A stretch of DNA of 64,000 nucleotides from Cirrosporium novae-zelandiae. Taxonomy: Eukaryota. The DNA is taken from contig JAPETS010000036.1 of assembly GCA_026023565.1 (NCBI GenBank), positions 62,001-126,000 of the forward strand, read 5' to 3'. Positions 13,667-62,804 of the stretch are shown here, in pieces. The notes beneath the pieces were generated by a model, which worked only from the letters and a program-made list of their open reading frames with translations, did not search any database and was not told the origin of the DNA. The translations under genes and the position numbers were made by a program. Within the stretch, counting starts at the first letter, position 1, and the number at the start of each line of letters is the position of its first letter.

Positions 13667-16600
13667 TCAGTAACCGATGTTTAGGGTGCTAAATTCGCGC
13701 TCCAGTTCTGCTGCATGAGTAACGCCAACCATGGCCTCATGATGTTGTCCTCCTACTCCAGCGCCACACTCGGGGCATCTAGATGTCTCCATGGGCATAC
13801 CGCATTCGCCCACAGTAAACGCATGGCCATTCTCACAATTGTACCAGTGTCCTGTACCTCTGAGCTCTGTTGCCATGGCAGCTAGTATGCTGCGTTTTTC
13901 ATCATTACTGACTACGCCGTAAAACGTTTCACCCCGTAACATTTTCCTAACAGCGTCCACATCTTCCATCATGCCTCGGGTTTGGGCTGGGTGGTCTTCA
14001 CACAGAGCCTTGGCATAGTCTACATGAGTTAAGGCATCCTCCCTGAGACCTCTTGCTACCTCCTCAGCAGCTGTTGAACTTTCGAGGGCTGAGTAGTGAG
14101 CAAAAAATATATGTCCCTCAACCTCTTGGAAGAGATGATTAGAACTTTTTGCTAGTTTGATCAACTTCAAGCAGTCCTTCCTGTTATAAGAGAGCTCGAT
14201 GGAAAACTGGACCAGATCTTTTGGGGCATTTTGAATCAAAGTCTTGACATCAGATAGCATGGCAAGATCACATCGGATCAATAAAGCGCTCGCAAGAAGG
14301 TAACCTCGCATCTGGATAACGTTGCTATCGTAAGTAAAATCGATTAGAGTTTTGTGACGCCTTTTGGCATTAATTACCATATCCCATACTCGCTTAAACG
14401 GTTGCTCTTCTTTGCGCATTCGTCCCATATGGGCTTTAATTTTCCCCCAAAGTCTGAGAATAGATTCATATCGTTTCGGGCCAGCCCAGTCGTATATCGT
14501 TTTTATTTGCTCGTTATGGTTACCCTCGATCCTTAACTCTTCTGGTTTGGCAAAGCCCTGGAAATCATACGCTGTTGTATCCACTGAGCCAACGAGCAAT
14601 TCATGGTCCACCTGGAGCTGTTTTGCAAGAGGAATATATTCTTTGTTAGCCCAAACAATGAACTTTTTGGTTGCTTCGTCAAGAAATGCCCCTCGGACGA
14701 TACGACCATATCTCGACAGATCCCTTAAGGAACCTCGACATGTCGCACAGACTTTCATTGCCTCCATGGAGAATAGATCGTATGTTTTCTTGATCTCGGT
14801 GATTATACCCTGCTCGGAAAACGTGTAATGCTTTGCCATGTCCATCTGGCCGTCCATACTATCCACTGTCAAGATATGACCACACTGCGGAACTATGCAA
14901 GGACTTTCATCAAGGTCAATGTCTCGATACGGTTGCATTAAAATAAAATCGACAGTGATGTCTTTAATATCTTCTGTAGCACATTTCTGACAGTATCTGG
15001 TTGAAGGGCATATTTCACCGCAGACTGAAGGGCCTTTAAGCTCTGTAAGTAGTTGTTGATTAATGAAACGATAGAATATACTCACATTGATGGCTACAGC
15101 TCAGCACCTTCGTGCAACGCTTCGAGCAAGGAAGCCAATCGCATGGAGCTGCACAAGGCATAGTACAACGGCTGTGAGGACACGCCGATGCACAGTTTTC
15201 TTCGGCGCAGGGCGTGCAAGGCTCATGGCATTTTTTATAACATCGCGAATGACTACAACAAACGGTGCAGGGTGCATCACAGGATGGACATGGGCTAGTT
15301 CCATGGCATGGGGTGATACATCTGTGGTTGCAGGTTGTGTAATTACGGCCACAGGGTTCCTGACAAGTTCCATGGTCTTCTTGTATAATCCTTTCGTTAT
15401 ATCTAATTCTGCAGTCCTTACAGGGTTTCTTGCATCGATGTCCACAGATTAGAAGAGAGCCGCATTCAGCCTTGCACTTAAACTCATTGCTCGTAACATT
15501 TATGCAGCAAGAGATATTAATTTTGTGACTGCACCCAGGTACGATCGATTGAACCTTCTCTGTACAGCGAACAGAAATTAGATGCTGAGCATTCCAACAA
15601 GGAAGATGGTCTTTCTTATGGCCACATGGTAGGATTAGATCCGTTCTGTAGACCTCAATGGGACACTTTGGATCGCATATATCACCACAAACACGGTTGC
15701 ATGGGTGTTCACAACCAATTCTAGGCCTTGGACATGGTTCTAAGCACTTGACGGCACTGTGAAGGACTTCCGAGTGACATTTATTAACACAAGCATGCCC
15801 ACACTTCAACCGTTTAGTGCACCGCTCGTCGCACCCGCCTTCGGGGGATAACCGTTGGAAGTCATCAGGAGTAGAAACCTCAATTAACTTGTCTAGATGT
15901 CGAGGACACTGGAGCTCAAAGCTGCCGCCGATGTTGCCAGATTGCTTCAAAATTGCAAGAACATCAGCCCACATAGCGACGTGACTAGAAGTGCGTGAGT
16001 TTCCGATAATGTACATTCCATGTTTAGCTCTGGAAAGCAATACGTTGATGCGGTTGCTAGTTCGCAGGAAGCCACATCTATTTCGCTCATTACTTCTAAC
16101 CAGGGATATTATCACGATCTTTGCTTCCTCGCCTTGAAAATTGTCTATTGTGGCGACTTTGAGGGCTTGTAAAAGTTTTATTTTGCTTACAGGCGAAGAA
16201 ATGGCATCTTCGTAAGACTCTATGCCATTTCTTTCCAAGTCCCGAAGGTCACGGTCGTTGACGACGACCTCGAAAGAGTCGCGTAACCTTCTACGGATCT
16301 TAAGCAGCTGACCTAGATATGGTGTAAGCACGGCGATATCTTCCGTTTCATAGACTCCCTGCCGAACTAAGTGAGAAACGAGAGAAGCGACCATATCAAG
16401 TTCAAAATCATTCCAATGTGAAGTTGGCATGGCATCCTGTGTGTCCGCATCTGCTTCTGGTTTTATGTGGTCAAACCAAAACAGCCTTTTCTTCATACCT
16501 GCGACTTTTGGATACCCTTCAACAGCCGGAGAATCTTTCAGCGCTGGATACAAGGTTGCTCTTATAAGTTGCGCTATCGAAGGATCCATTCTCCGTTGTG

Positions 16601-19600
16601 TCTCCAAGGTGCTAAAAGGAACACGTAAGCCGGAGGATACAGGTGGCTGAACCAGCCTTTCAAAAAGAGATACGTCCAGTGAATACTGCGCTCCACGAGC
16701 GTTTTCGCGCTGAAGCTCGTAATTTTGGATACGGGGCCGCAGCTGGAGGTGATCACCAATAAGAATAGCATGCTCTATTGAAGGAAGGAAGGCGGTCAGG
16801 AGATGTGCTTCAAGAACCTCGCCCGCCTCCTCGCACAGCATCACTTTTGATTGAAGTCTTTGGAGCAAGTCAATATTCTTGGCTAACCCGGAAGTTGTGA
16901 CTCCAATAACGTTGGCCTGTTGAAGACATCTCAAGTCAAGCTCATTACGAATCTGATCATGATCGGCCTTCACGCCTAGATAAGACATAAGAGCAGTCAT
17001 AATATTGTTGTAAATGTCATTTTTGATACTAGACAGCCAGTGGGCATGTATAGTCGCACGCTCTATTGATGACATCGCATAGAGACTCTCCTGAAGAAGT
17101 CTCGAGATCGGACGAACGCGGCTGAATCGCTTAGAAAAGAGGGGATTATTCTCGTAGAGCCAGTTATCAATTATATTCTCAGGGTGGTGATGCACTACTT
17201 CCCAGCCTTCTTCGGGTTGACCAAACAATTCATTGTGGTGTTCAGAATGGTGGACCTCAAGATAGTTCTTAATACTAGTCCATGAATCAAGCTTGTTGAG
17301 AGTTGAAAAAAAGTCGGATAGCGCATCTTCATCTTTTTCAAGGGCCTGAGCCAACTCCCATTTGCGACGTTTCTCAACTTTTGTTTGCTCCACTTTCTTC
17401 GCAACAAGGCGTAAATTTAGAGGCTGGAGTAGCTCTGACTTTGACCGGCCCCCAATGCGGATAACTTGGCTAATTCCGCTGTGAATAAGTTCCTCTAGCA
17501 ACTGGTCCAACGCATGGTTTGTATAGGTCACGCAAACAATAGGTCCAAGCTTTGCATGTTTTTTGTTGCTAAGTAAGACTTTAATAATTGCTACGCCGGT
17601 GAAGCTCTTACCTGTTCCAGGTGGTCCTTGTATAAGCGCCAGAGATCGACTGAGCGAGTCAATTAGAGCAGATGCTTGGGCATCGTCTAGGACCGACATC
17701 TCCTGAAAAGCTTTCAAGTCAAAGGGCTCTCCAGGTGAAAACGAAAGGTCGGTTTCATGCTTTAGAATACACCCTAAATTGAAGCGAAAGTTTTGTCGTA
17801 TAGTATAAGGAGGTGGTTCGATATTGACAAGGCCAGTAATCTTCGTGTCCGTAGGGGCAAGTATCTGTGCAAATGGAAGCTCAGCGGTAATGGCTAAACG
17901 CTGCAAGGCCAGCAGAGTAGGTTGAAAAGAGGGTAATAATACCCCAGGGAACTCAATAAGTGAGTCTTGCTGGATATTTTTACTCATTTTATACCGATCG
18001 AGAATTTGCTTAATACTAGACTCGTCATTTTTAACTAGACGAAGGGTTAGAAATGCTTTGTCGGGGTCCTCGGAGAGATTAAAGATCGTAGCACTTGATG
18101 CGTCAGATTGAGGCTCTTCAGTTTTTGAAGGGTCTGAGACTGAACAGAATATTGCAGAGCCATGAGAGCCGAGTAGACAGATTAATGCGAAAGGCTGTAG
18201 ACGCCTCGTGCCTTTCCACCATTCTTGACGGCTTTGAAGCGTCATATTGCGCAAATGTGGGAGCTGGTTAAAGCTAACTGAGAATTCAAAACCTCTCCAT
18301 TTCCCAAATGATATGTCCAACACTGCAACATTTAGATATGTGTAAATCCTAGTACCTTGCTGGTAATGTGGCCTGGTTACAACTCCTTCCTGCACATTAT
18401 GCCGTTGCTCCAGCTCTGCTCTAATGGCATCCCGGAGTTGACCCACCGTATCCTCACGCAGCAGGCGAAATTGTCGATCAAATAAACCCTCAACTCCCGG
18501 TAGATACGACTCCGAAGGATCATTAATAGGCAGATATTCACGACGAACACTTTCAATCTCTTCATAGGTCGGCATGATTTGAATCTCTCGAATATCAGCA
18601 TGGTCGTTATCATGACGAGGTCCTTCTACGGACAAATTCCCAGGTAGATCCTGATGTAACACAAAGGATACATTCGTAATAGGGACCTGATGCTTATTCT
18701 TTAATTCATTTAATGGCATATCACGACCGAGCCCAAGCCGACGGTGAATTTTCCCAAGGTATTTTCTTGCTTGGCATTCCGAAAGAGGCCCATTTCCCAG
18801 GTTAAGTTCATCAAGAAGGTCATCTAAAGCCTCCACAATAGGGTAAAGAGCTTCATTTAGGAGTGCTGCTCCATTCAAATCAATAACTTTTGCTAACACA
18901 GCGAGAGTAGTTTCGACCAATGAGGAAATATCATGATCCTCTATCGTTAGGGAGGAATATCCTTGGAAGGATAAAACATCGACGACGAGTGTAAATAGTT
19001 TAACTGTCCGCCGTCCACCCGGTCCATATATATATGTGTAAATTGTTGAGACAGGGTTCTCGAGAAGCGCTGACAAGACCACATCAGGATGAGACAAGGT
19101 CTGGAAGAATGGAATAATCTCTGTCATGACAACGACTATTTTCGCCTTATCGGCCATTGCTTCAAAGTTCCGCTCAATAAGTTCCTTGACTCGAGATAAG
19201 CCACCTTCAGAGGCCATCAGGGTGATAACCTCCTGCATAAAACCAATGTCACTGTTCACTAGTTTAAGACCTCCCTGAGCGAAATGACGAAGCTCTTCCC
19301 CGACCAAAGACCGCCCATAGCGTGGATTTTTTGGAACTAAAAATCTCCATGCTTGAAAGTCCGATTCTAGAGTTGGAATAGACAAGGTTCTGTTTGAGCC
19401 ATGTATTTGGGGTTCGTGCCGAGGTTCGGACAGCTGTGTGCCACCGTATTGCTCAAAGGGGGTACCATTATTTTCTCCTGAATGGGAAAAGTGGCAATTA
19501 TCACCCTTCAGACAACCTTGTGGAGTAAAGAAGAATCTACAGGGCCGCCGAGACTTCCAGTCGCCACTTGAGGTTGAGGGGCCGTGGTTATACCCGCGTG

Positions 19601-19647
19601 CTGAACTTCTCTTAGATTTTCTGGCAGAGAAATCAAAGCAAGGCTCC
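13667..19647 (-). CDS. ZNFX1-like protein: CCCH finger, UPF1-like SF1 RNA helicase, NF-X1 zinc fingers, RING-like segment and RZ finger; true 5' exon not resolved
   Basis: ORFs of 1441 aa and 472 aa are joined by intron 15034-15085 (..HQC|PSVCGE). Motifs: Walker A GPPGTGKS, TYTNHALD, CEEAGE, IGDHLQLRP, SLFERL, QRRM, TIDNFQGEE, NRINVLLSRAK, many CGH.C...C repeats, and C-terminal GHWYNCENGH..VGECG..CPECG..GG. The frame stays open upstream to an acceptor at 19648. Confidence 0.9.
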
Positions 19648-20842
19648 CTAATTAATAGTCAGTACATTTCAGTTTATTCGAATAAGAGCAAAACCATCCA
19701 AATCCACGGAGATGAAGTTGCAGGTGCAGTTTTTACAATTATTCACTCCGCATCAAACCATACTTCGCTCTAAGGAGAGCTGAAGAACTCGAGATGCTGA
19801 GAAGTAATCATGCAGCTGCAGCTGAAACTAGGTTTGAAATTGACTTGATTCAATTACAAAGGCTAGCTGGTGTTTCCATGACCAAAGCACACCTCGCAAT
19901 CCAAAGAGATGTTTGATTAAGGATATATTAGGTGGACCTACATCGGTCTATTTTCAGCAGTGTCGCTTTCCAATTCCGAGAAATATCAAGTTCGAGGGAT
20001 GTGACAATTTGAGTCAGTTTTCTGGTCTTTCAAAGAGAGGGGGTTTCAGCCAATTTTGTAGTAAATCGTAGTTTGCAAAATGCATTCACGTCATATGGCC
20101 CTCATCCTGTAAAGCATATTGTAATACTGTATACTGTACTTTCGAAAGTACATAACATAATAAAATAAGACGGTTCGCCTAGTTTCCAGCTCATGTTTTT
20201 GACTACCCGATTCTTGACATGTATTAATGATAGGCCGAATACCGTGGTATTGTCTCCAGAGAGTGTGGTAGGAAGATTTACGAGGTGACATGGCTGAGAT
20301 AGAGGACCAATGATGGTAGATAGATTATAGACAAGAAAACACATCGAGCGCATTTCTACCAAGTAGTCATCGAAAACTTAGAAGAGGCCAATCAACAATC
20401 TCCTCAAGTGCTTAGATTATCAATATGGTTTTTAGTCAAGAGAAGGGGAGAAGGAGAGAAAGCATATGTTCTTACAACGATAGCAGGTTAAGTGTCACAG
20501 CGTGTATACAAAGTCGCAAGGTATGTATTAGTACGACCCCAGGTAATATTACCTGAAGCTATACGGTTTCGATCGGTCCTCACGAACAATACTTGGATGC
20601 TCAGTAATGTGCGAGCTATCGTCAACTTCTATAAACTTCCGGAAGTATCGAATAATTCCAATGTTTTATTACCCAAGTCATGCAGGGTTCATCTCAAAGC
20701 TTCGGTGTTGTACCAGTTACGACGGGCCCGACCCGAAATGGCAGTTCTTCAACAAAATTACCGAACTCAATGAACCATCAACTCTCAAAGATGAAGATAA
20801 CCCTCGACAACACCACAATTTTTCCTCCAGATTAACTCAACA

Positions 20843-31363: not shown

Positions 31364-34300
31364 TTAGTCCTCATCATCGCCATCATTGTCTTCAGTCTCA
31401 CTAGCCCTTTCAGCCATCTCATCGTTCTCCTTGTCTTTCCCTTTTTTATTCTTCCTATTAACCAGCCTATTCCATGACCTGCTTCCCCGGTTACTCCGAT
31501 CCACCGAATGCGCAGAACTTGCCACACTGTCAACACTCTTGCCTGCATCTCCATACAGCGAGGAACTAGCAGCTTGTTGTCCTTCTTCTGGAGTCTCCAC
31601 CTGCTCACCAACCTTTTTGTTGGCCTTAGACCAGGGCATATTAAACTTACTGTAACTAGACTTGCGGGTGAGCTTTTGGATGAAGGAATCTCTGTTGCTG
31701 TTGCTCGTATAGGATGCAGACAAGGGTGCTTCGAAGGACGGCGTGCCCGACGTTGTACGTTCAAGCGAGTTTCGCGACTGCTCGGAGGTCGAAGGGACAG
31801 TTACAAGTGAGCGACCGTCGTGAGAACGATGCGATTTGGGCGAAACCTCAAATTGTGCAAGCGTGTCATGCAAATCATCACCGTCCTGTGGAATGGGGTT
31901 GTGCGGTTCCTTGTTTGCGGTCTCTTTGGCTTCCTTGTCAGACCTTTTGCTTTCACGCTTGAATAAACTAAACGAAGGAGCCTTCGGATTCAATGTTCTC
32001 TGACGCGGGGTACCGATTGGCGGTTGCTCATGATGATAATGTCCCTCTTGGTCTTCAATAATATCATCATCTAGTGGCAAGTGAGTGGTAGATGAACCGT
32101 ATTGAATCGATTGCCGACGAGATTGACTGCGGGAGAACGCATCTGATGCCCAACCAAATGCAGAGCCCCCATGAGCACCCAAATGATCGCTTGGTGGCCA
32201 TCCGAAAGGCTGAGTCTCTGTAGATGCCCTGAGCACACTTTCCTGGGAGAGCGTTGAAGGGGGCCTTGGTGAAGGCGCTTTGCTATGTAATGGAGACCCT
32301 ATAGGCCCGAAAGAAGGTTCATATTTACTACCAAACAGGTTCAAAGGGCTTCTCCTAGAAAGTACCGAAGAACGGTCACCGATATTATGCCCTATTCCAG
32401 ATCCCCTAGACCAAAGGCTGGAAAGTGAATTTGTAAAGCCTCCGGCACTGCCTCTACGAGGACGGGTGTCTGCAAATGGAAAGTCTGGTTGCTCAAGATT
32501 CCGAGGAAATGATTGGCTTTGGCCACTTTTAAGCGAGCCGAGTATAGGCGGTTCTGCAGAAACAGTCTTTCCCCGTTGTCGATTAAACCCGAAGATATTG
32601 GCGAACCTCTTGGAATGACGAGTACTCTCAGCGTGATCTACCTCACCCAAAGCGTTGTTTGAGCGAATGGACAGCACATCACCTTGTACATTTCGATCTG
32701 GTCGAATTGGGAAAGATAATTTGCTTGTACTAGTCTGAGGACTGGCAATCCCACTGGCCGAAGGGCTGCTAGGAGAATCTGGGGACTGAGATGTCGAGTT
32801 GAAGTTCTCTGCTCCAGATAGGCCTGCAGCTGGTACCAGCCTGCTAATAAACGGTGATCTGCCAAGTGGTAGGGAGCTAGCTGTCGAGGGCCTTGGGCGT
32901 GAAAGAAAGAAGTCTTCGGTGGGACGTGATATTGGAAGATCCTCGTGTACTCGCGAAATTGGGGTTTCATCATCTCCATCATCGCCTGTATCGCCAAGTA
33001 GCCCGGATGGAAGGAGGGAATCTGCGGTTGGGCTCATTGGCATACCATCAAAAGAGGAGTCCTCATGGCTCTGAAATATCGGTCGATCCGCTGGCATAGG
33101 GATGGTAAAACTATTACTAATACTGTGGTTAAATCCATAATAGGAAGGGGTAGGGAATGTCGGCGAGATAGTCGATATATTATCTAGCCCATGAGAACTG
33201 GAGTAGGAGTCGTGGATCGGAAAGCTTCCCGGTTGAGATGACATCGTACTGGCTCGAGATCTTCTTTGTATATTTCGACGTACTCTTGCAGTCATGGCGG
33301 AAGGGTCAAAGTCCATGACAGGGCTAGCTGTAATATGATCTGGCTGACTGCTACGACGCTGGAGAAGCCATTGAAGAGCTTGCGAGGCTTGTTCACGCTC
33401 TTCAAGGGAGTGTTGTAATGCTTTATGCATCGAAACGTATTTACTTTGAAGATCCTTGAACCTAGCATCCCATTGAAAGTCCTTCTCTTTTACCATCTGA
33501 TCAATCTCGTAAGCTTCAGTGTCTTCTATGTTTTCACCAGTGTGCTTTTTCTGGTCTTCAAGTTCGTGAAGTTGAACGCCTTTTACGCGAATATCTTCTT
33601 CAAGACTCCTGATTGCTGATTGGTTGTCATCTAAGATCTTTTTTAGCGTCTCCAATTTGCTTGCTGTCTCTTGTTCCAACTTTGCTTTCTCTTCTTTTAG
33701 CCCCCGGGTCTGTTCCTTGATAATCTCGATCTCCTTTCCCCACCTAGCCAAGTCTTCTCTCATATTTTTTCTTTCATCCTCTTTCTGCTCTAGAACCTTT
33801 TCCGTGGCTGTCTTGTTGCTCTGCGCTGCTCGATTGATGCTGTTAAGATTTGCAAGCTCCTTCTTTAGTTTACTGCTTGCTTCCTCTTTATCTTTAAGAG
33901 CCTGTTTTAGGCTGCTACGCTGCTTTTGCAAAGCTTCCATTTCTTCCTGATAGTCTATTTCCTCTTTTGCTATCTGCTCCTCAATATCCTCTGTCTCTTG
34001 TTGCAAAGTTTTGAGTTTCGCAGTAAGCTCTTGAATGGAAATGCCAACTTCGTCAAGTCTAGCATCCGTTTCGGACTGTCTGCGACTGCCTGAATCAATA
34101 TTTACAGCAGCAGGCGAGTTCCTCCGTCCTAAAGACCGTCTCCCGCTACTCAAAGCATTCCCACCTTCTCGGATCACGGCGGACGTCGCGGCCGGCGTGA
34201 ATAACTCGACAGGAGGGGCCTGGGGTCGAACTCCAGGATAGCGGTCTTCTTGCGCGCCATGGTTTGAAATAGTGTGCGACTGTCTAGTACTGGATCCGGG

Positions 34301-34895
34301 ATTGTCACATGTTCGCGGAGGAGATGTTTGTAATCGAATCAATGAACCCGATGTTTGAAAGTCGGCAGAGTTGACAGAAATTACGCGAATATTATAGAGG
34401 TTACCTGGGTTCAAGCCATAGACGGTGATAGTAGTTTCGGACCTGGATGTCTCTCCCACTATAACAGGTCAAATTAGATGCTGTGGATACTTTGAATTGT
34501 TACTTGTCACGTACCATTGATACCATTCACCTGTATTATATGTTTGGCGGTAGAATTGTGTGCTTCCGGAGGCTTCCAAGTAAGATCGATTTCAGTGTCG
34601 CGAATTCCGGTCAATGATACATCAGGTGGCGGGGGAACGTCGAGCCCGAGAAGATCACCAAGTTCTGCAGCGGGTTTTTGGACAATTTGTAGACCACGAA
34701 ATAGAAGCCTAAATTGGCTTGCATTAACATTCTATTCAATGCACCAGGCATGATGAAGGAGTGATCTGATACAGACCAGAGAAAAGCGCAAGCGGCGGGG
34801 GAATATTTGATTAAACCCTCGGACCATTTTAGAAATTGGGGGATTTGGTAGGGTAGCCATTCAAGAAAGACATCGGGGCGCCAATCGAGATCCAT
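31364..34895 (-). CDS. Conserved fungal protein with an N-terminal hydrophobic anchor, fibronectin type III domain, long coiled coil and Ser-rich tail
   Basis: Two 5' exons (..CAFLW|LLFRG..LGLDVPPPPDVSL..W.PP..QVNG) join the 1031-aa ORF starting VGET..ITVYGLNPGNLYNIRVISVN (FN3-like). About 250 aa of heptad-rich sequence follows. Confidence 0.8.
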
Positions 34896-39134: not shown

Positions 39135-42100
39135 TCAACTTAGGATGCTTACCTCCGCAATGGACTGCCGTTCAATAATACTCTTCTGCCTATCACTCCT
39201 CGAAATCCGGTAGTAGGTGTCACAGAAATCCGCGCATTGCATCTCCTTCAAAAATTCCTCGTCATGCGTAATCACAATCAGCTGAAAGTTTGACTGCTGC
39301 TGCCGCTCGTGAATAATGTCATGCAAGGCTTTGGCCAAGGATCGGATGTTGTCGCGGTCGAGATTCGTTGTCGGTTCATCGAGTGCTATGAGTCCGCAGT
39401 TGACGCCGAAGCACTCGGCAAGGGCAAGACGGATGATGATACTCGCGAGAACTTTTTGGCCAGCTGAGCAGCGGCCACGCATGTCCATTTCTGCATCCTG
39501 TTTAACCATGCAGACACGGTAGTTATAGGAACGGTTCCCCTTTGCGTTTTCGTTGTCAGAGCGAATCATGATGGTGTCGACATCGGTGCCTTGATATGTC
39601 TTCTGCCAGAGCTCCTCGATAATGCGGTTGATTTCCTCCATCTTAATGCTGTGGTATTTCATGATGGCTTTGTCGAGAGCGCCAGCATATCGAGCAAGAT
39701 CATCGACAGCGGCTTTTGTCGTCTCGACCTTGATGTGGGATTCCTTGTATTTGTAATCGGCATCTTTGTAGTCAGTCTCCCAGTCGTTGATTAGATCTGC
39801 CAGTTGAATGTCTTTGGACTTCATTTCACCCGCATAGCCAGCTTGCTCGGCTGCAAGGACGGTATGTTTCTGTTCGCAGAGTTTGGCTTCTTTTGAGAGA
39901 CGGACGTAATCCGCTTCGGCATTACGACTTTCTAGGTCTTCAACTTCCCCCCGCAAAGTTTCCAGGTCACGGATGTCTCTTCGCAAACGAAGATTGTCAT
40001 GAATACTGCGTTTTGTCTCCTCAATGTTCTGCAGCTGTTGTTGAATCTTATTTATCTCAATGGTGACGATCCGTTGTTCCTCCAACAATCGGCTAATCTC
40101 ATCAGTGATGTTCTCCATTTCCCTCTGGCACCTTGCAAGTTGGTTTGGTCCGCCATTATCGACATAATCGGTGATATCCCGATCAGCTTTATCAAGCTGC
40201 CTCAAGCTTTCCTTGAGATTCATGGCTTCCTGCTGGAGTTCATTTTCTTTCTGAACCGATCGTTGTTGGAGATCATCGTATTGCATCTGGAACTTGGACA
40301 TTTCGGGATGTAAGTCTTGCAGGTCCTTGTCAGCTCGTCCCATAGATTCTCGTTGTTCCTGATTCAGGCCTTTCAATTGTTCAATCTGGGCAGACATATC
40401 GGCTTTCCTTTCGAGCTGGTAGGTAGAATCAGCTAACCTGCTCTTGATATCTCTTAGGTCTAGTTCTAGTTGGTTAATCCGAGCTCGGCCATTTTCCCTG
40501 TCAGCAGTTAATTTTGAAGCAGATTGACGCACAACGCGGGTTTTTTCATTCAAAGTTTTCAGTTCGTCTTGAATATCCTCGAGCGTCCTTGCGAGCCCGG
40601 TACTACCTGACTTTGCAGAAAGCTCTTGAATTTGGGCTTCAAGGGTTTCGATATCATGGTGATACTTAGAGATTGTTGTTACGCTCCTTGCCAAAGAGTC
40701 AATATCTTGTTTTGCCTCCTTCTTTTCAGAAACGAGGAAGTCCTGATTCTCAAGTTCTGCTACCAGGCTGTCTTTCCGACTTTCATACTGTTTCATCTCA
40801 GCCTCAAGAGCAGGCACCTCATGCTGTGACAGCCGTTGCCAGGTGTCATACTGCGTCCCTGCTTCTTGGGCCAACTGCAATCGTTCTTCAGCCTCCTGCT
40901 TCTCTTGTTCTGATATATCTGTGGCTTTCTCAACTTGCTTTTTGAGACGGTCTTTGAACCCTTCAAGGTCTCTCTCCACTTTGTATTGCCGTTGGCAGAG
41001 TCGGCAACACCCTTTCTTCTCGGCAAGTTGTAAGGCTTTTTCGAGGTATTCCCTCCAGTATGCACCTAGCTCAAAACTTTGCACTACCTGGTCACGGCTA
41101 TCTTGAATTTCAGATAACCTCTCTGGGTATTCAGCAACGTCTTGGTCATCAATGGCAGTAGAAACTTGTTGGGCACAGGTTTGGATTTCCGCTTTCTTCT
41201 GTTGAAGCTCTTTGCGAGCAGTAGCCAATTTGAATTCTGCCTGTTCAAGCTCTCGGCTAATACCATCTCTTTGTCGCTCGGTGTCCCTGAGTTCCTTGGT
41301 CTTCTGATCCGTCAAGATCTGATAGTCTTTCTCGAGAGATGAAGGTTGCCACTGAGATCCGAGATGTCCCTGAATTCTATCTCCATGGGCTCCAATCATT
41401 GTATCTAAACCACGCTTTCTATCCTTCAGTTCTTTCTTGATATGGTCTAGACGAGCCATTTCTCCCGCACGTTTAGTTCCCTGCACAAGTTCTTCGTTTA
41501 AATGAACGCCCTGATCTTCTAATGACCGAAGCTCTTTGTTGGCTTCCCCGATTTTGCTATCCCATGATGCGGTCTCGTAATCCCGTTTAGCCTTCTGCAA
41601 TCGACTTTCCACTTCTTCGGTAGTAGATTCGAGCGCAGCCTTTCCGCCCTCGTCAACGGCGATACGATCCATGTTAGCCTGGTATTTGGCCATATTATTA
41701 TCATTAGAAGCAATGCTCTCTCTTGCCAGCCTCTTGCTCTCCTGCAGAGCCGACCTCCGTTCCCTCAATTGGGATAATGTGTTCTGTGCCTTCTGTAGTT
41801 CTTCTTTGGTCTCTCTCTGTACTCTCTGGAGATGAAGGTCTTGGTCTTTGGTCATCTTCCGTAGTCTCTGCATAAACTCCTTGATCTGTTCATCATCCGG
41901 ACTAGAATTGAGCCCACGGATGTTGTGACGACGGGCATTCTCTTTAATCAAAGCATCTCGGTCCTGAAGTTGCTGTTCATACCGGCGTTTTTCAGCTTCA
42001 TATCGACCAAGTTCAGTTTGTTTTTGACCAAGTACTTGCCGATTGGACTCAATCAGCTGTCTAAGTTCCTCGTACCGCTCTCCTTGTGTGAGTTTATCTT

Positions 42101-43321
42101 GCTTCTGCTGAGCTACTCGTTCCTCGTACCGGTCTTGCATTGCTTCAAGCTCTTCGTCAGACTCTTTCATCTGCTTGATGTGCGGCCGAAGGTCATCGAT
42201 ATTCTCTTGTTTCGTTTTAGCAGTTCCACGTTTGGCTTCTAATTGGCCGAGAACCTTTGCATATCCTTCGGAATCCTGTAGCGCACGGTCTCTCCTTGCT
42301 GCGAGTTCGATCATTTCTCCCCTTAGATATGTACATTTATCCCGTAGCGCTTCAATCTCTTCTTGGAGTTCCATAGATCTTTGTTGATTTTTATCGGCCT
42401 TGGCTTTATCTTCCTTACAATGCTGTTCCATAATCTTGAATTTCCCCAAGTCTTCATTTTGTTTCTTGCGCAGAGCTTTCAAATTGTCAATTGCTTTAGT
42501 ATACTTGAGCGCTTCGAAAATTTCATCAAACTTCTTTTTCAGTACTGATGGCTCGCTCATTGGCCATAGACTCTCGTCTTGATGGCAGAATATCACGGCA
42601 TCAAGGACTGCCCTAGAAACCCCCAAGTACTGGGGCATAATCTGGTCCAATTCAGCGACTCGAGATGAAATAGCCGTACGTTCCCCTTCTTTTATCATTA
42701 GAAGCTGCCCCTCAAGGGTTTTTTGCTGACGAGTTGTTTTTTTGACAGTAAGTTGTAAGCTTCGCGTTACTACCATCTTAGCACCGGTGGTTCCTTTAAA
42801 GGATAACTTTACTTGTGCGAGAACCTCCCTCTCACCACATAGCTAAAAAGGCATCAACATGAGCGAAAGCTAAGTATGGAGGACTACCAACCTTCGGGTC
42901 ATGAATGAAAGCTCCGCCCTTGCTATTCGGGGGCAGGTCTCCTGTGGTAGCATATTTAAGGCATTCAATAATAGTCTATAGCCAGGTCAGAGCCCATCAG
43001 CAAAGCTGGAAGGTCTTCCAACCGTTTTCCCCGATCCATTGTGTCCAACAATTAAGGTAAGAGGCGTATGGAATTGAATGGTCTCGCTTCTCGTGTTATC
43101 GAAGGACCGGACGCTTGTAAAGGAATCAGCTTTGGAGGATGGAGTGGATAAGACATAAAACATACCCCAGTATTGAGAGTTTGTCGATCTTTGCTGCACC
43201 AGTTATGATAGAATAAGTATTGGTATTGGAACGGCTAAGCCGCAGACGCTTAAGAATAGACAACTTACACCTAAGCTAGTCAGCACCGATCGACATATTA
43301 TATAGGAGTGATTACTCACAT
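39135..43321 (-). CDS. RAD50: DNA repair protein Rad50 (MRN complex)
   Basis: Spliced N-terminus [15 protein letters not shown], Walker [17 protein letters not shown], zinc hook CRLC, signature RCSAGQK, Walker B/D-loop LDEPTTNLD, and ITH. Confidence 0.97.
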
Positions 43322-43728: not shown

Positions 43729-45343
43729 ATGTCAATGTTCGGGAATGGAGGAGATCTCGGTACAGGACAGTCAGCAAACGTGAGCCGTATAAAATTTGAT
43801 TTACTCCAAAACAGTTCCAGGACGCTCATGAAAGGCCCAGATGGATACCCCCATGAACGATCTTCTTGGCACCCCCAACCCCGATATACTTAGCAATCTG
43901 GATGTTGATACGCTCCCGATGAACCTTGAGGTGAATCTCATTGACCCCGAATCCCGTCCTTATACTTCCATGGAAACTTCCCAGCCCGCCGCCGAAACAT
44001 CCAACCCAGTCAGCAGCACCTCCGCCACCAACACCAGCGGTGTCCTTACTCCTATCATGACCGGTGCTGGTGCGGGGCCTCTCCCACATGGATTTGGCGC
44101 CCAAGCCCCGACAAACAATGGAAGCACTCTTACCGAATTTACGAAGAGAAGAAATTGGTCACAACGAGTTCTGGAAGAGCTGAAAGATTTCCTTCATATA
44201 CTCACACCCGATGGGCGGATATTATATGTCTCACCGTCCACCAAGTATCTTACCGGCTGGACGCCCGATGACCTGCTCGGTAAATTCATTGGCGATTTTG
44301 TTCATAGCGATGACAGCACACTTTTTATGCGAGAGTTTAACGAGTCTATTGCGTCCGGTAAACCTTTACGGTTCTTTTATCGGTTTCGTAAAGAAGATGG
44401 TACATTTACCATCTTCGAAACTCATGGCCATCCTCATCTAACATCAGAAACCACCTACGGTCCGAGCGCTGCTGGGTTCTGCCGCGGCTTCTTCATGATG
44501 GCGCGGCCATATCCAACTAAGAATGCCAGCCTACTCGACTCCTTCCTCGAGCACAAGATAGAAAACGAGCGCTTAACACAGAGAATTGCAGCTCTCAAAA
44601 AAGAAGAGCAGGATGATCTAGAGGCACAACAAGCCCATTGGTCGAGAAAAGTCAATGGTTCTAACATGACGCCCTCTCAAACAACCAAATCAGATGCTCC
44701 CTCTCTTTCAATTACTTCCGGTTCCACTTATGATCATACGACCATGCCTCCACCTGCTAAGCCAGGCCTTACGGACGGCGCTCTTACCGAGTCAAACCTC
44801 GATGCGGCGAACATTCGTCCTGACAGTATTAATGACAAGATGGCTCGTTATGAGGGTGCCACGCACATCGAAACCATCGAGATGTTGACCGGGCTACGGT
44901 ACCGTGAGGGAGAACGATCTCAAGGTATTAGTACCGGCGATGCCAGTCCCGCTCTCATCAAGGGCGACGCAGGTATTGCAATCCCCATGGACAAGGAGGG
45001 CCGAGACGGTGGGGAGAAGAAGAAGAAATTAAAAGCTGCAGATGAGTACGTCTGCACCGATTGCGGTACACTGGACAGCCCCGAGTGGCGAAAGGGCCCG
45101 AATGGGCCCAAAAGCTTATGCAATGCTTGCGGACGTAAGTTTCTTTGCCTATCTGATCCAAACTCAACCCAAATAATTCTCCGAGCTAACACACGAACAG
45201 TGCGCTGGGCCAAACGTGAGAAAAAGGCGCGAACAGCAGGAAACCCGAATCCACAGGCAAACTCCCAAACGCCGACATCTCAGCCTCCTCCAGGCCAGCA
45301 GGTTGTAACCAGTAGCAACGAGCTTTCAAATCCCTCCACATAG
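43729..45343 (+). CDS. wc-2: White Collar-2 / LreB: PAS domain plus GATA zinc finger transcription factor
   Basis: [13 protein letters not shown] domain, [37 protein letters not shown], and GATA finger [30 protein letters not shown]. Introns 43780-43840 and 45135-45200. Confidence 0.95.

Positions 45344-61176: not shown

Positions 61177-62804
<1,628 letters not shown>

Follow-up and report, generated by a model that had tools for sequence, protein, structure and literature searches.

Human ZNFX1 is an RNA helicase and ubiquitin ligase (E3) that takes part in the antiviral defence of human cells, and its deficiency leads to severe immunodeficiency. The Caenorhabditis elegans protein ZNFX-1 has a role in small-RNA inheritance and is without the RZ finger. 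Here, we describe a ZNFX1-type gene from the fungus Cirrosporium novae-zelandiae, which belongs to the class Xylobotryomycetes within the Pezizomycotina. The gene is located on the minus strand at positions 13667-19647 of a 64,000-nucleotide stretch of contig JAPETS010000036.1 (assembly GCA_026023565.1, contig positions 62,001 to 126,000), referred to below as the window; all coordinates are window positions. Based on its sequence and on the analogy to the human enzyme, we consider it likely that the gene codes for a ZNFX1 family member of full architecture and that this protein would act as an RNA-activated E3.

In recent reports, human ZNFX1 is described as an RNA-activated E3 ligase (PMC13270118; PMC13710534) with two cooperating elements, a domain termed 'Miz' or 'Z-RING' and the RZ finger (bioRxiv 2025.10.14.682297; bioRxiv 2025.09.05.674436; PMC13270118). 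The human RING-like domain is reported to contain the zinc ligands C1591, H1593, C1619 and C1622, a sub-optimal linchpin residue, Q1623, and the residue F1575, which binds the ubiquitin-conjugating enzyme (E2) and sits 16 residues ahead of C1591 (bioRxiv 2025.09.05.674436). For the human RZ finger, H1853 is described as a zinc ligand, C1860 as the nucleophile and H1881 as the base (bioRxiv 2025.10.14.682297). Fungi are not mentioned in the three texts on the human mechanism that were searched (the string 'fung' occurs 0 times); Grabarczyk et al. (Cell 2025) lay outside this search, and the supplementary figures of both bioRxiv preprints may show non-animal orthologues.

Previously described fungal relatives are Hrr1 from Schizosaccharomyces pombe (999 amino acids), SAD-3 from Neurospora crassa (1,160 amino acids) and RnhA from Mucor (1,231 amino acids; PMC5384783), which are presented as homologues of the ZNFX1 helicase with an unusual insertion in common (bioRxiv 2025.10.14.682297; PMC5384783). 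Their reported function is silencing and not ubiquitin ligation, and they are about half the size of the fungal ZNFX1-type protein described below. N. crassa has two more relatives, NCU05861 and NCU09357, which are placed outside the SAD-3/Hrr1 cluster (PMC5384783). A preprint on ZNFX-1 describes the zinc-finger domain as 'not present in fungal orthologues', by which Hrr1 and SAD-3 are meant (bioRxiv 220111).

Results

The locus codes for a ZNFX1-type protein with complete module order

Once a predicted intron is spliced out, the minus strand between 13667 and 19647 forms a frame of approximately 1,975 codons, in which the sole stop codon is the terminal one. The closest protein of known structure is human ZNFX1 (9q9z_A, E 2.8e-100), followed by Upf1/Nam7 (E 1.5e-30), in agreement with a preliminary description of this DNA, made from the sequence without database searches, which had proposed one ZNFX1-like protein of about 2,000 amino acids. 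The match to 9q9z_A consists of four collinear stretches, namely the pre-helicase region (351-496), helicase 1A, helicase 2A and the first fingers (1161-1354). From the N- to the C-terminus, the fungal protein contains a CCCH finger, an Upf1-like helicase of superfamily 1 (SF1), a Cys-rich NF-X1-type stalk, a one-zinc RING-like domain and an RZ finger. The order is the same in human ZNFX1, where a pre-helicase region is followed by an Upf1-like SF1 helicase with a long insertion, an NF-X1-type stalk, the Miz/Z-RING domain and the RZ finger. The N-terminal CCCH finger, together with the remnant of another, is a fungal feature that is unreported for the human protein in the texts examined. The modules are as follows, with residue numbers such as C50 or C410 given in the numbering of the last exon:

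19482-19541, minus strand: CCCH zinc finger, found by regular expression with the exact C-x8-C-x5-C-x3-H spacing
15996-17690, minus strand: SF1 Upf1-like helicase core (AAA_11 and AAA_12), in which motifs Ia and II are separated by a long insertion; from Pfam, the alignment to human ZNFX1 9q9z_A and motif regular expressions
14981-15833, minus strand: Cys/His-rich NF-X1-type finger stalk, spanning the intron; from composition, its first part aligning to the human ZNFX1 fingers
14702-14953, minus strand: one-zinc RING/U-box-like domain, putative equivalent of the human ZNFX1 'Miz'/'Z-RING', with C50-x-H52, C95-x2-C98, the linchpin position R99 and the aromatic residue Y35; from conservation and an AlphaFold model
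13907-14701, minus strand: helical linker from the RING-like domain to the RZ finger, with long helices, many at a predicted local distance difference test score (pLDDT) of 80-98, and no significant match in the PDB
13718-13906, minus strand: RZ finger and preceding helix, with the zinc ligands C399, H403, C419 and C422, the nucleophile C410 and the base H431

The two helicase models of Pfam matched far above their cut-offs (AAA_11, E 1.3e-23; AAA_12, E 9e-39), and motifs I, Ia, II, III, V and VI were all found by regular expression and aligned residue by residue to human ZNFX1, so that the helicase motifs are intact as previously noted. The finger region contains 51 Cys and 16 His residues within 305 residues. 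The Pfam zf-NF-X1 model gave no match on the finger region alone, even at an E value of up to 10, and we retain the label NF-X1-type fingers, which the preliminary description had also used, because of the composition of the region and its alignment to the human ZNFX1 fingers. For the N-terminal finger, the Pfam CCCH models reached 13-19 bits, all under the curated cut-offs; the precomputed domain lists of homologues show PF00642, PF18345 or PF18044, which are CCCH models. Of the profiles that had been suggested for this protein, AAA_11, AAA_12 and the RZ finger thus exceeded their cut-offs, zf-NF-X1 remained unmatched and CCCH fell below. Human ZNFX1 additionally has an N-terminal armadillo dimerisation domain and an auto-inhibitory plug helix; in the fungal protein, residues 60-650 had no Pfam match. 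Beyond the helicase, CCCH-type and RZ models, nothing was found under an E value of 0.1 in the translations of the two open reading frames (ORFs) that make up the gene, and searches of three sub-regions at E values of up to 10 added nothing credible.

Catalytic and zinc-binding residues are conserved throughout the fungal family

The RZ finger was recognised by PF20173 with 79.6 bits (E 1.3e-22; cut-off 27). It also aligned to the RZ finger of RNF213 (E 1.6e-8; query residues 417-459, 43 residues) with GEC on GEC, and the cysteine of this motif, C410, is retained as had been proposed. The spacing from H403 to C410 (+7) and from C410 to H431 (+21) is identical to that from the histidine ligand to the nucleophile and the base in human ZNFX1. 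The positions given earlier for the RZ finger (approximately 13738-13852) and for a RING-like segment (14734-14899) were correct.

When the 454 residues of the last exon were searched against 1.84 billion cluster representatives, 2,360 of them matched with E <= 0.001; 987 of these reached E <= 1e-10 and 340 reached E <= 1e-30. Conservation was assessed in the best 150 of these 2,360 representatives (clustered at 50% identity), aligned to the query, and the counts below refer to those representatives that cover the respective position:

C50, RING-like zinc ligand: kept in 121/121
H52, RING-like zinc ligand: kept in 121/121
C95, RING-like zinc ligand: kept in 138/138
C98, RING-like zinc ligand: kept in 138/138
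R99, linchpin position: kept in 132/140
Y35, upstream aromatic residue: aromatic in 118/121
C399, RZ zinc ligand: kept in 129/129
H403, RZ zinc ligand: kept in 127/128
C419, RZ zinc ligand: kept in 124/124
C422, RZ zinc ligand: kept in 124/124
C410, RZ nucleophile: kept in 117/124
H431, RZ base: kept in 113/120

The segment that had been called a degenerate RING can be read as a putative one-zinc domain of the Miz/Z-RING type with invariant ligands. C45, which was part of the motif originally pointed out, is a cysteine in just 87 of 121 representatives and otherwise Val, Ile or Leu, and is therefore probably not a zinc ligand. Fungal and human domains share four zinc ligands in the arrangement C-x-H...C-x2-C followed by the linchpin residue, which is Gln in the published human sequence and Arg in the fungal protein. 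Y35 is located 15 residues ahead of C50.

Many of the representatives are 390-475 amino acids long and start at query residue 26-35 or 59-68. These short sequences resemble exon-level pieces that were predicted on fungal contigs, rather than free-standing RING-RZ proteins.

Structure prediction hints at a RING-type fold

The AlphaFold model of the whole 454-residue last exon had a mean pLDDT of 75.5 and contained a long helical linker. When this model was compared with the PDB by Foldseek, helical-repeat noise alone was obtained (best E 0.079). A 114-residue piece with the RING-like domain was modelled with a pLDDT of 79.8, and its top VIA-align matches were, judged by their titles, E3 domains of the RING, U-box or RBR type. 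The best was a chain of the anaphase-promoting complex (APC/C; 8a3t_U, Z 6.0, root mean square deviation (rmsd) 3.0, 78 residues aligned), followed by the MYCBP2 RCR ligase (6t7f_A, Z 4.4, rmsd 3.7, 78 residues aligned), which is the template used in a study of human ZNFX1. Each of these fold scores is weak alone, and we favour a RING-type domain because the class of the matches is consistent and the ligands are conserved. According to the preprints on the human domain, the SP-RING/Miz domain of the Siz/PIAS SUMO ligases and the MYCBP2 RING have the cross-brace fold with the distal zinc site only. Sequence similarity of the fungal domain to them was undetectable and the fold matches were weak. 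Chains of the Siz/PIAS SP-RING and the Ufd2 U-box were not among the 50 VIA-align matches listed, which excludes nothing.

The protein differs from RNF213, NFX1 and SAD-3/Hrr1

RNF213 (mysterin) has the RZ finger in common with the fungal protein, including the same zinc ligands, the GEC nucleophile and the base histidine, but it combines a canonical RING with a dynein-like AAA core and has neither an SF1 helicase nor an NF-X1 stalk. As only the 43-residue finger aligns and the fungal ATPase is an SF1 helicase, we rejected membership in the RNF213 type. Similarly, membership among the NFX1/FAP1 transcription factors was rejected due to the presence of the helicase, and R3H and RING were unmatched in Pfam.

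Neither NF-X1 fingers nor an RZ finger appear in the published descriptions of Hrr1 and SAD-3, and the comparison here is made with these descriptions only. A helicase of the Hrr1/SAD-3 kind would have approximately 1,000-1,200 amino acids and would be without the stalk, the RING-like domain and the RZ finger, whereas the Cirrosporium protein has approximately 1,975 amino acids and all three modules. Going by this architecture and by the descriptions of Hrr1 and SAD-3, the gene is not a SAD-3/Hrr1 orthologue. This is in line with the preliminary description, against which a single-copy SAD-3/Hrr1 orthologue would have counted, as is the presence of paralogues within single species.

The ZNFX1-type family is widespread and multi-copy in the Pezizomycotina, large, and already named in databases. 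A search with the helicase region gave 5,342 proteins at E <= 0.001 among 8,000 candidates scored. PF20173 is carried by 84 of the 120 matches listed; the remaining 36 are all shorter (896-1,664 amino acids), so that truncated gene models and real loss are indistinguishable for these. Two proteins from the same species are 59% identical in Elaphomyces granulatus, 61% in Lasiodiplodia theobromae, 46% in Bathelium mastoideum and 79% in Diplodia seriata. That pairs from one species are just 46-79% identical indicates old paralogy within genomes of the Pezizomycotina. In contrast to human ZNFX1, the fungal relatives are hence multi-copy in some fungi. One Cirrosporium protein was present among the 120 matches listed, and more distant paralogues would fall outside this listing. 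In the Protein Atlas, RZ clusters came from Ascomycota only, plus one Basidiomycota cluster at 0.88, which we take as a lead only.

Gene structure

The gene is split over two stop-to-stop ORFs on the minus strand, 15060-19658 (1,532 codons) and 13667-15100 (477 codons), which overlap by approximately 40 nucleotides in different frames. The predicted gene parts are:

13667-15033, minus strand: last exon, which ends with the stop codon 13667-13669; 454 residues with the last NF-X1-type finger, the RING-like domain, the helical linker and the RZ finger; frame restored by the intron
15034-15085, minus strand: predicted intron of 52 nucleotides (GTGAGT...AAAG), with the family consensus at the junction
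15086-19647, minus strand: main exon with the remnant of a first CCCH finger, the CCCH finger, the conserved pre-helicase region, the helicase and most NF-X1-type fingers
19648-20291, minus strand: candidate 5' intron or introns and first exon, from the enumeration of ATG, donor and acceptor sites and the mapping of the deposited model

The GT-AG intron at 15034-15085 lies inside the ORF overlap. Its removal restores a Cys codon (T|GC) and gives ...SCSHQ-C-PSVCGE..., which fits the family consensus CGHQCPSxCGExCP. When 14 homologues were aligned to the joined protein, 9 of them proved collinear with it over the entire Cys-rich region and the splice junction; the other 5, one of which is the deposited model for this gene, have gaps or lie in another frame at the junction.

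This deposited model is a 1,967-amino-acid 'hypothetical protein' from a C. novae-zelandiae metagenome-assembled genome, found as a 100% identical match. It leaves the correct frame near 15534 and is back in frame only near RYCQKC (window 15034-15533, minus strand), whereby approximately 150 residues of Cys-rich fingers are swapped for an out-of-frame translation that is almost free of Cys. Automatic gene models can thus scramble the finger region in long genes of the ZNFX1 type.

At the 5' end, an acceptor AG of the main exon is found at 19649-19648 and a second AG at 19645-19644. A TACTGAC branch site lies at 19660-19666, 12-18 nucleotides upstream of the acceptor, and an in-frame stop codon four codons upstream. 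An acceptor at 19648 or 19644 together with the branch site implies a further 5' exon. All combinations of ATG, donor and acceptor were enumerated for this exon, which yielded only weak options and none that is compelling. One of them uses an ATG at 19697-19695 directly before a 51-nucleotide intron and leads to M-PCFDF...; another, taken from the deposited model, has a 47-residue exon at 20151-20291 followed by a 503-nucleotide intron. Homologues have few residues ahead of their first CCCH finger, and the first exon of the deposited model is not shared by them.

At the start of the main exon, 22 residues (EPCFDF...YNHG; 19580-19646, minus strand) align with the first CCCH finger of some homologues. 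This stretch is without two of the three Cys residues and resembles a decayed second CCCH finger.

Genomic neighbourhood

The following Pfam matches were obtained for neighbouring ORFs:

NAD-dependent epimerase
Sad1/UNC
alpha/beta hydrolase
leucine-rich-repeat (LRR) protein
Utp11
TFIID 31-kDa subunit (TAF9)
glycoside hydrolase family 5 (GH5) glycosidase
lipin/Ned1
RAD50/SMC-like ATPase
PAS+GATA factor
Sel1-repeat protein
glycoside hydrolase family 1 (GH1) glycosidase

The guanine-plus-cytosine (GC) content is flat over the window, between 0.41 and 0.50. Due to the housekeeping neighbours and the flat GC content, the accessory-looking block in which the gene had first been placed is not supported, and nothing in the surroundings looks accessory or mobile. 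Among the Pfam matches of the neighbouring ORFs, no silencing gene adjoins the helicase gene.

The largest unexplained ORF in the window is an open frame of 1,034 codons at 31367-34468 (minus strand) with no Pfam match at E <= 0.001. An ORF with PAS and GATA zinc-finger domains, the architecture of white-collar-type light regulators, is located at 43832-45340 (plus strand) and adjoins the RAD50/SMC-like ORF at 39138-42842 (minus strand).

Discussion

That the C. novae-zelandiae protein would have E3 activity is well supported by its homology to human ZNFX1 and by residue conservation. The proposal of an RNA-activated E3, already made in the preliminary description, matches the human ZNFX1 results reported in 2025-26, and the fungal family as a whole keeps the catalytic residues. 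As the E3 activity of human ZNFX1 has been published, the novelty that had been attached to this proposal was overstated, and such an activity is no longer novel for the family.

By analogy to the human enzyme, we propose that the helicase would bind single-stranded RNA using ATP, which could release or stimulate the C-terminal E3 module. The RING-like domain would dock a charged E2 of the Ubc4/5 type, and ubiquitin might then be transferred to the target directly, or first form a thioester with Cys410 of the RZ finger before it is passed on to the target. Candidate targets would be the enzyme itself and, perhaps, RNA or proteins bound to RNA, and the bound RNA might thereby be marked or sequestered. 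The fungal CCCH finger probably provides a further contact to RNA. With regard to the biological role, our guess by analogy is the surveillance of mycoviral, transposon or aberrant RNA. More tentatively, and with doubts that outweigh our confidence, one might speculate that filamentous ascomycetes have kept at least one complete ZNFX1 enzyme beside SAD-3/Hrr1, and that these enzymes act as cell-autonomous RNA sensors, which would attach ubiquitin to mycoviral, transposon or aberrant RNA and sequester it.

Several points weigh against the assignment as an RNA-activated E3 or against the role suggested for it. The fold match of the RING-like domain is weak, with the best VIA-align Z of 6.0 below the noise guide of approximately 8, and Foldseek found nothing at E <= 0.001 for this model, the best match being the RING of RNF4 (E 0.064). 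The equivalence to the human RING-like domain was derived from spacing and from residue numbers in the literature rather than from an alignment, and the fungal loop from H52 to C95 exceeds its human counterpart by 17 residues. The helix before the RZ finger has a pLDDT below 50, that is, a low model confidence. The splice at 15034-15085 is predicted only from sequence and homology, and no in-frame ATG is present upstream of the CCCH finger, so that there are only candidates for the start codon. In the literature searched, there was no functional study of fungal members, and the matches to gene identifiers were just tables of expression or of the ratio of non-synonymous to synonymous substitutions (dN/dS). 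Lastly, C. elegans ZNFX-1 acts in small-RNA inheritance without an RZ finger, and family membership therefore leaves the biological role unfixed.

Alternatively, the protein might mainly be a helicase of a small-RNA pathway, for example in the amplification of small interfering RNAs (siRNAs) that depends on an RNA-dependent RNA polymerase (RdRP), in quelling or in meiotic silencing, and the E3 module might do no more than control the turnover of the protein itself. Hrr1, SAD-3 and nematode ZNFX-1 are indeed described as homologues that function in RNA interference (RNAi; bioRxiv 220111; PMC5384783), and the chains made by the RZ finger are reported to drive the turnover of ZNFX1 itself in human cells (bioRxiv 2025.09.05.674436). 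However, the finger and RZ modules are missing from the descriptions of SAD-3 (1,160 amino acids) and Hrr1 (999 amino acids), and the Cirrosporium gene has no silencing gene next to it. In addition, N. crassa has SAD-3 as well as the more distant NCU05861 (PMC5384783), which is tied to the ZNFX1-type family by name alone; that both are kept suggests separate jobs. Taken together, we regard a mainly silencing-related function as unlikely.

It is considerably less plausible that the gene codes for a housekeeping factor, either an Upf1-like decay helicase for mRNA quality control or an NFX1/FAP1-like DNA-binding transcription factor. The helicase core is Upf1-like, the gene is surrounded by housekeeping genes and has a native composition, and the Magnaporthe protein MGG_11779 (ZNFX1) is tabled under 'DNA-binding transcription factor activity' (PMC11091397). 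That label is a transferred annotation, however, and the match to ZNFX1 is approximately 70 orders of magnitude better than that to Upf1. Neither the R3H domain nor the canonical RING of NFX1 was detected by Pfam in the ORFs (E 0.1) or in the three sub-regions (E up to 10), and within-species paralogy would be unusual for a core decay factor. Least plausible, to the point that we would dismiss it, is a decaying or mis-assembled gene, since the lack of an upstream ATG, for which the solutions need a weak donor or a 503-nucleotide intron, and the loss of two Cys residues in the EPCFDF...NHG stretch are set against 1,975 stop-free codons with all catalytic and structural residues kept, a clearly recognisable branch site and acceptor where the main exon begins, and an available first exon that consists of a single ATG with a 51-nucleotide intron.

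Our favoured view therefore remains that of a complete ZNFX1-type enzyme with a putative RNA-activated E3 activity. The mechanism of human ZNFX1 as an RNA-activated E3 has been worked out just in 2025-26, and filamentous fungi carry the complete enzyme, in which every known catalytic residue is conserved family-wide. Fungi such as Neurospora and Aspergillus could hence be used to study the ancestral job of ZNFX1 as well as a ubiquitin-based defence against RNA parasites that would operate beside RNAi. If a surveillance role is true, 'RNA quarantine' immunity of the ZNFX1 type would be older than the split between animals and fungi, and fungi would offer a genetically tractable system, in which the RING-like domain has a more canonical Arg linchpin and a CCCH RNA-binding finger is added.

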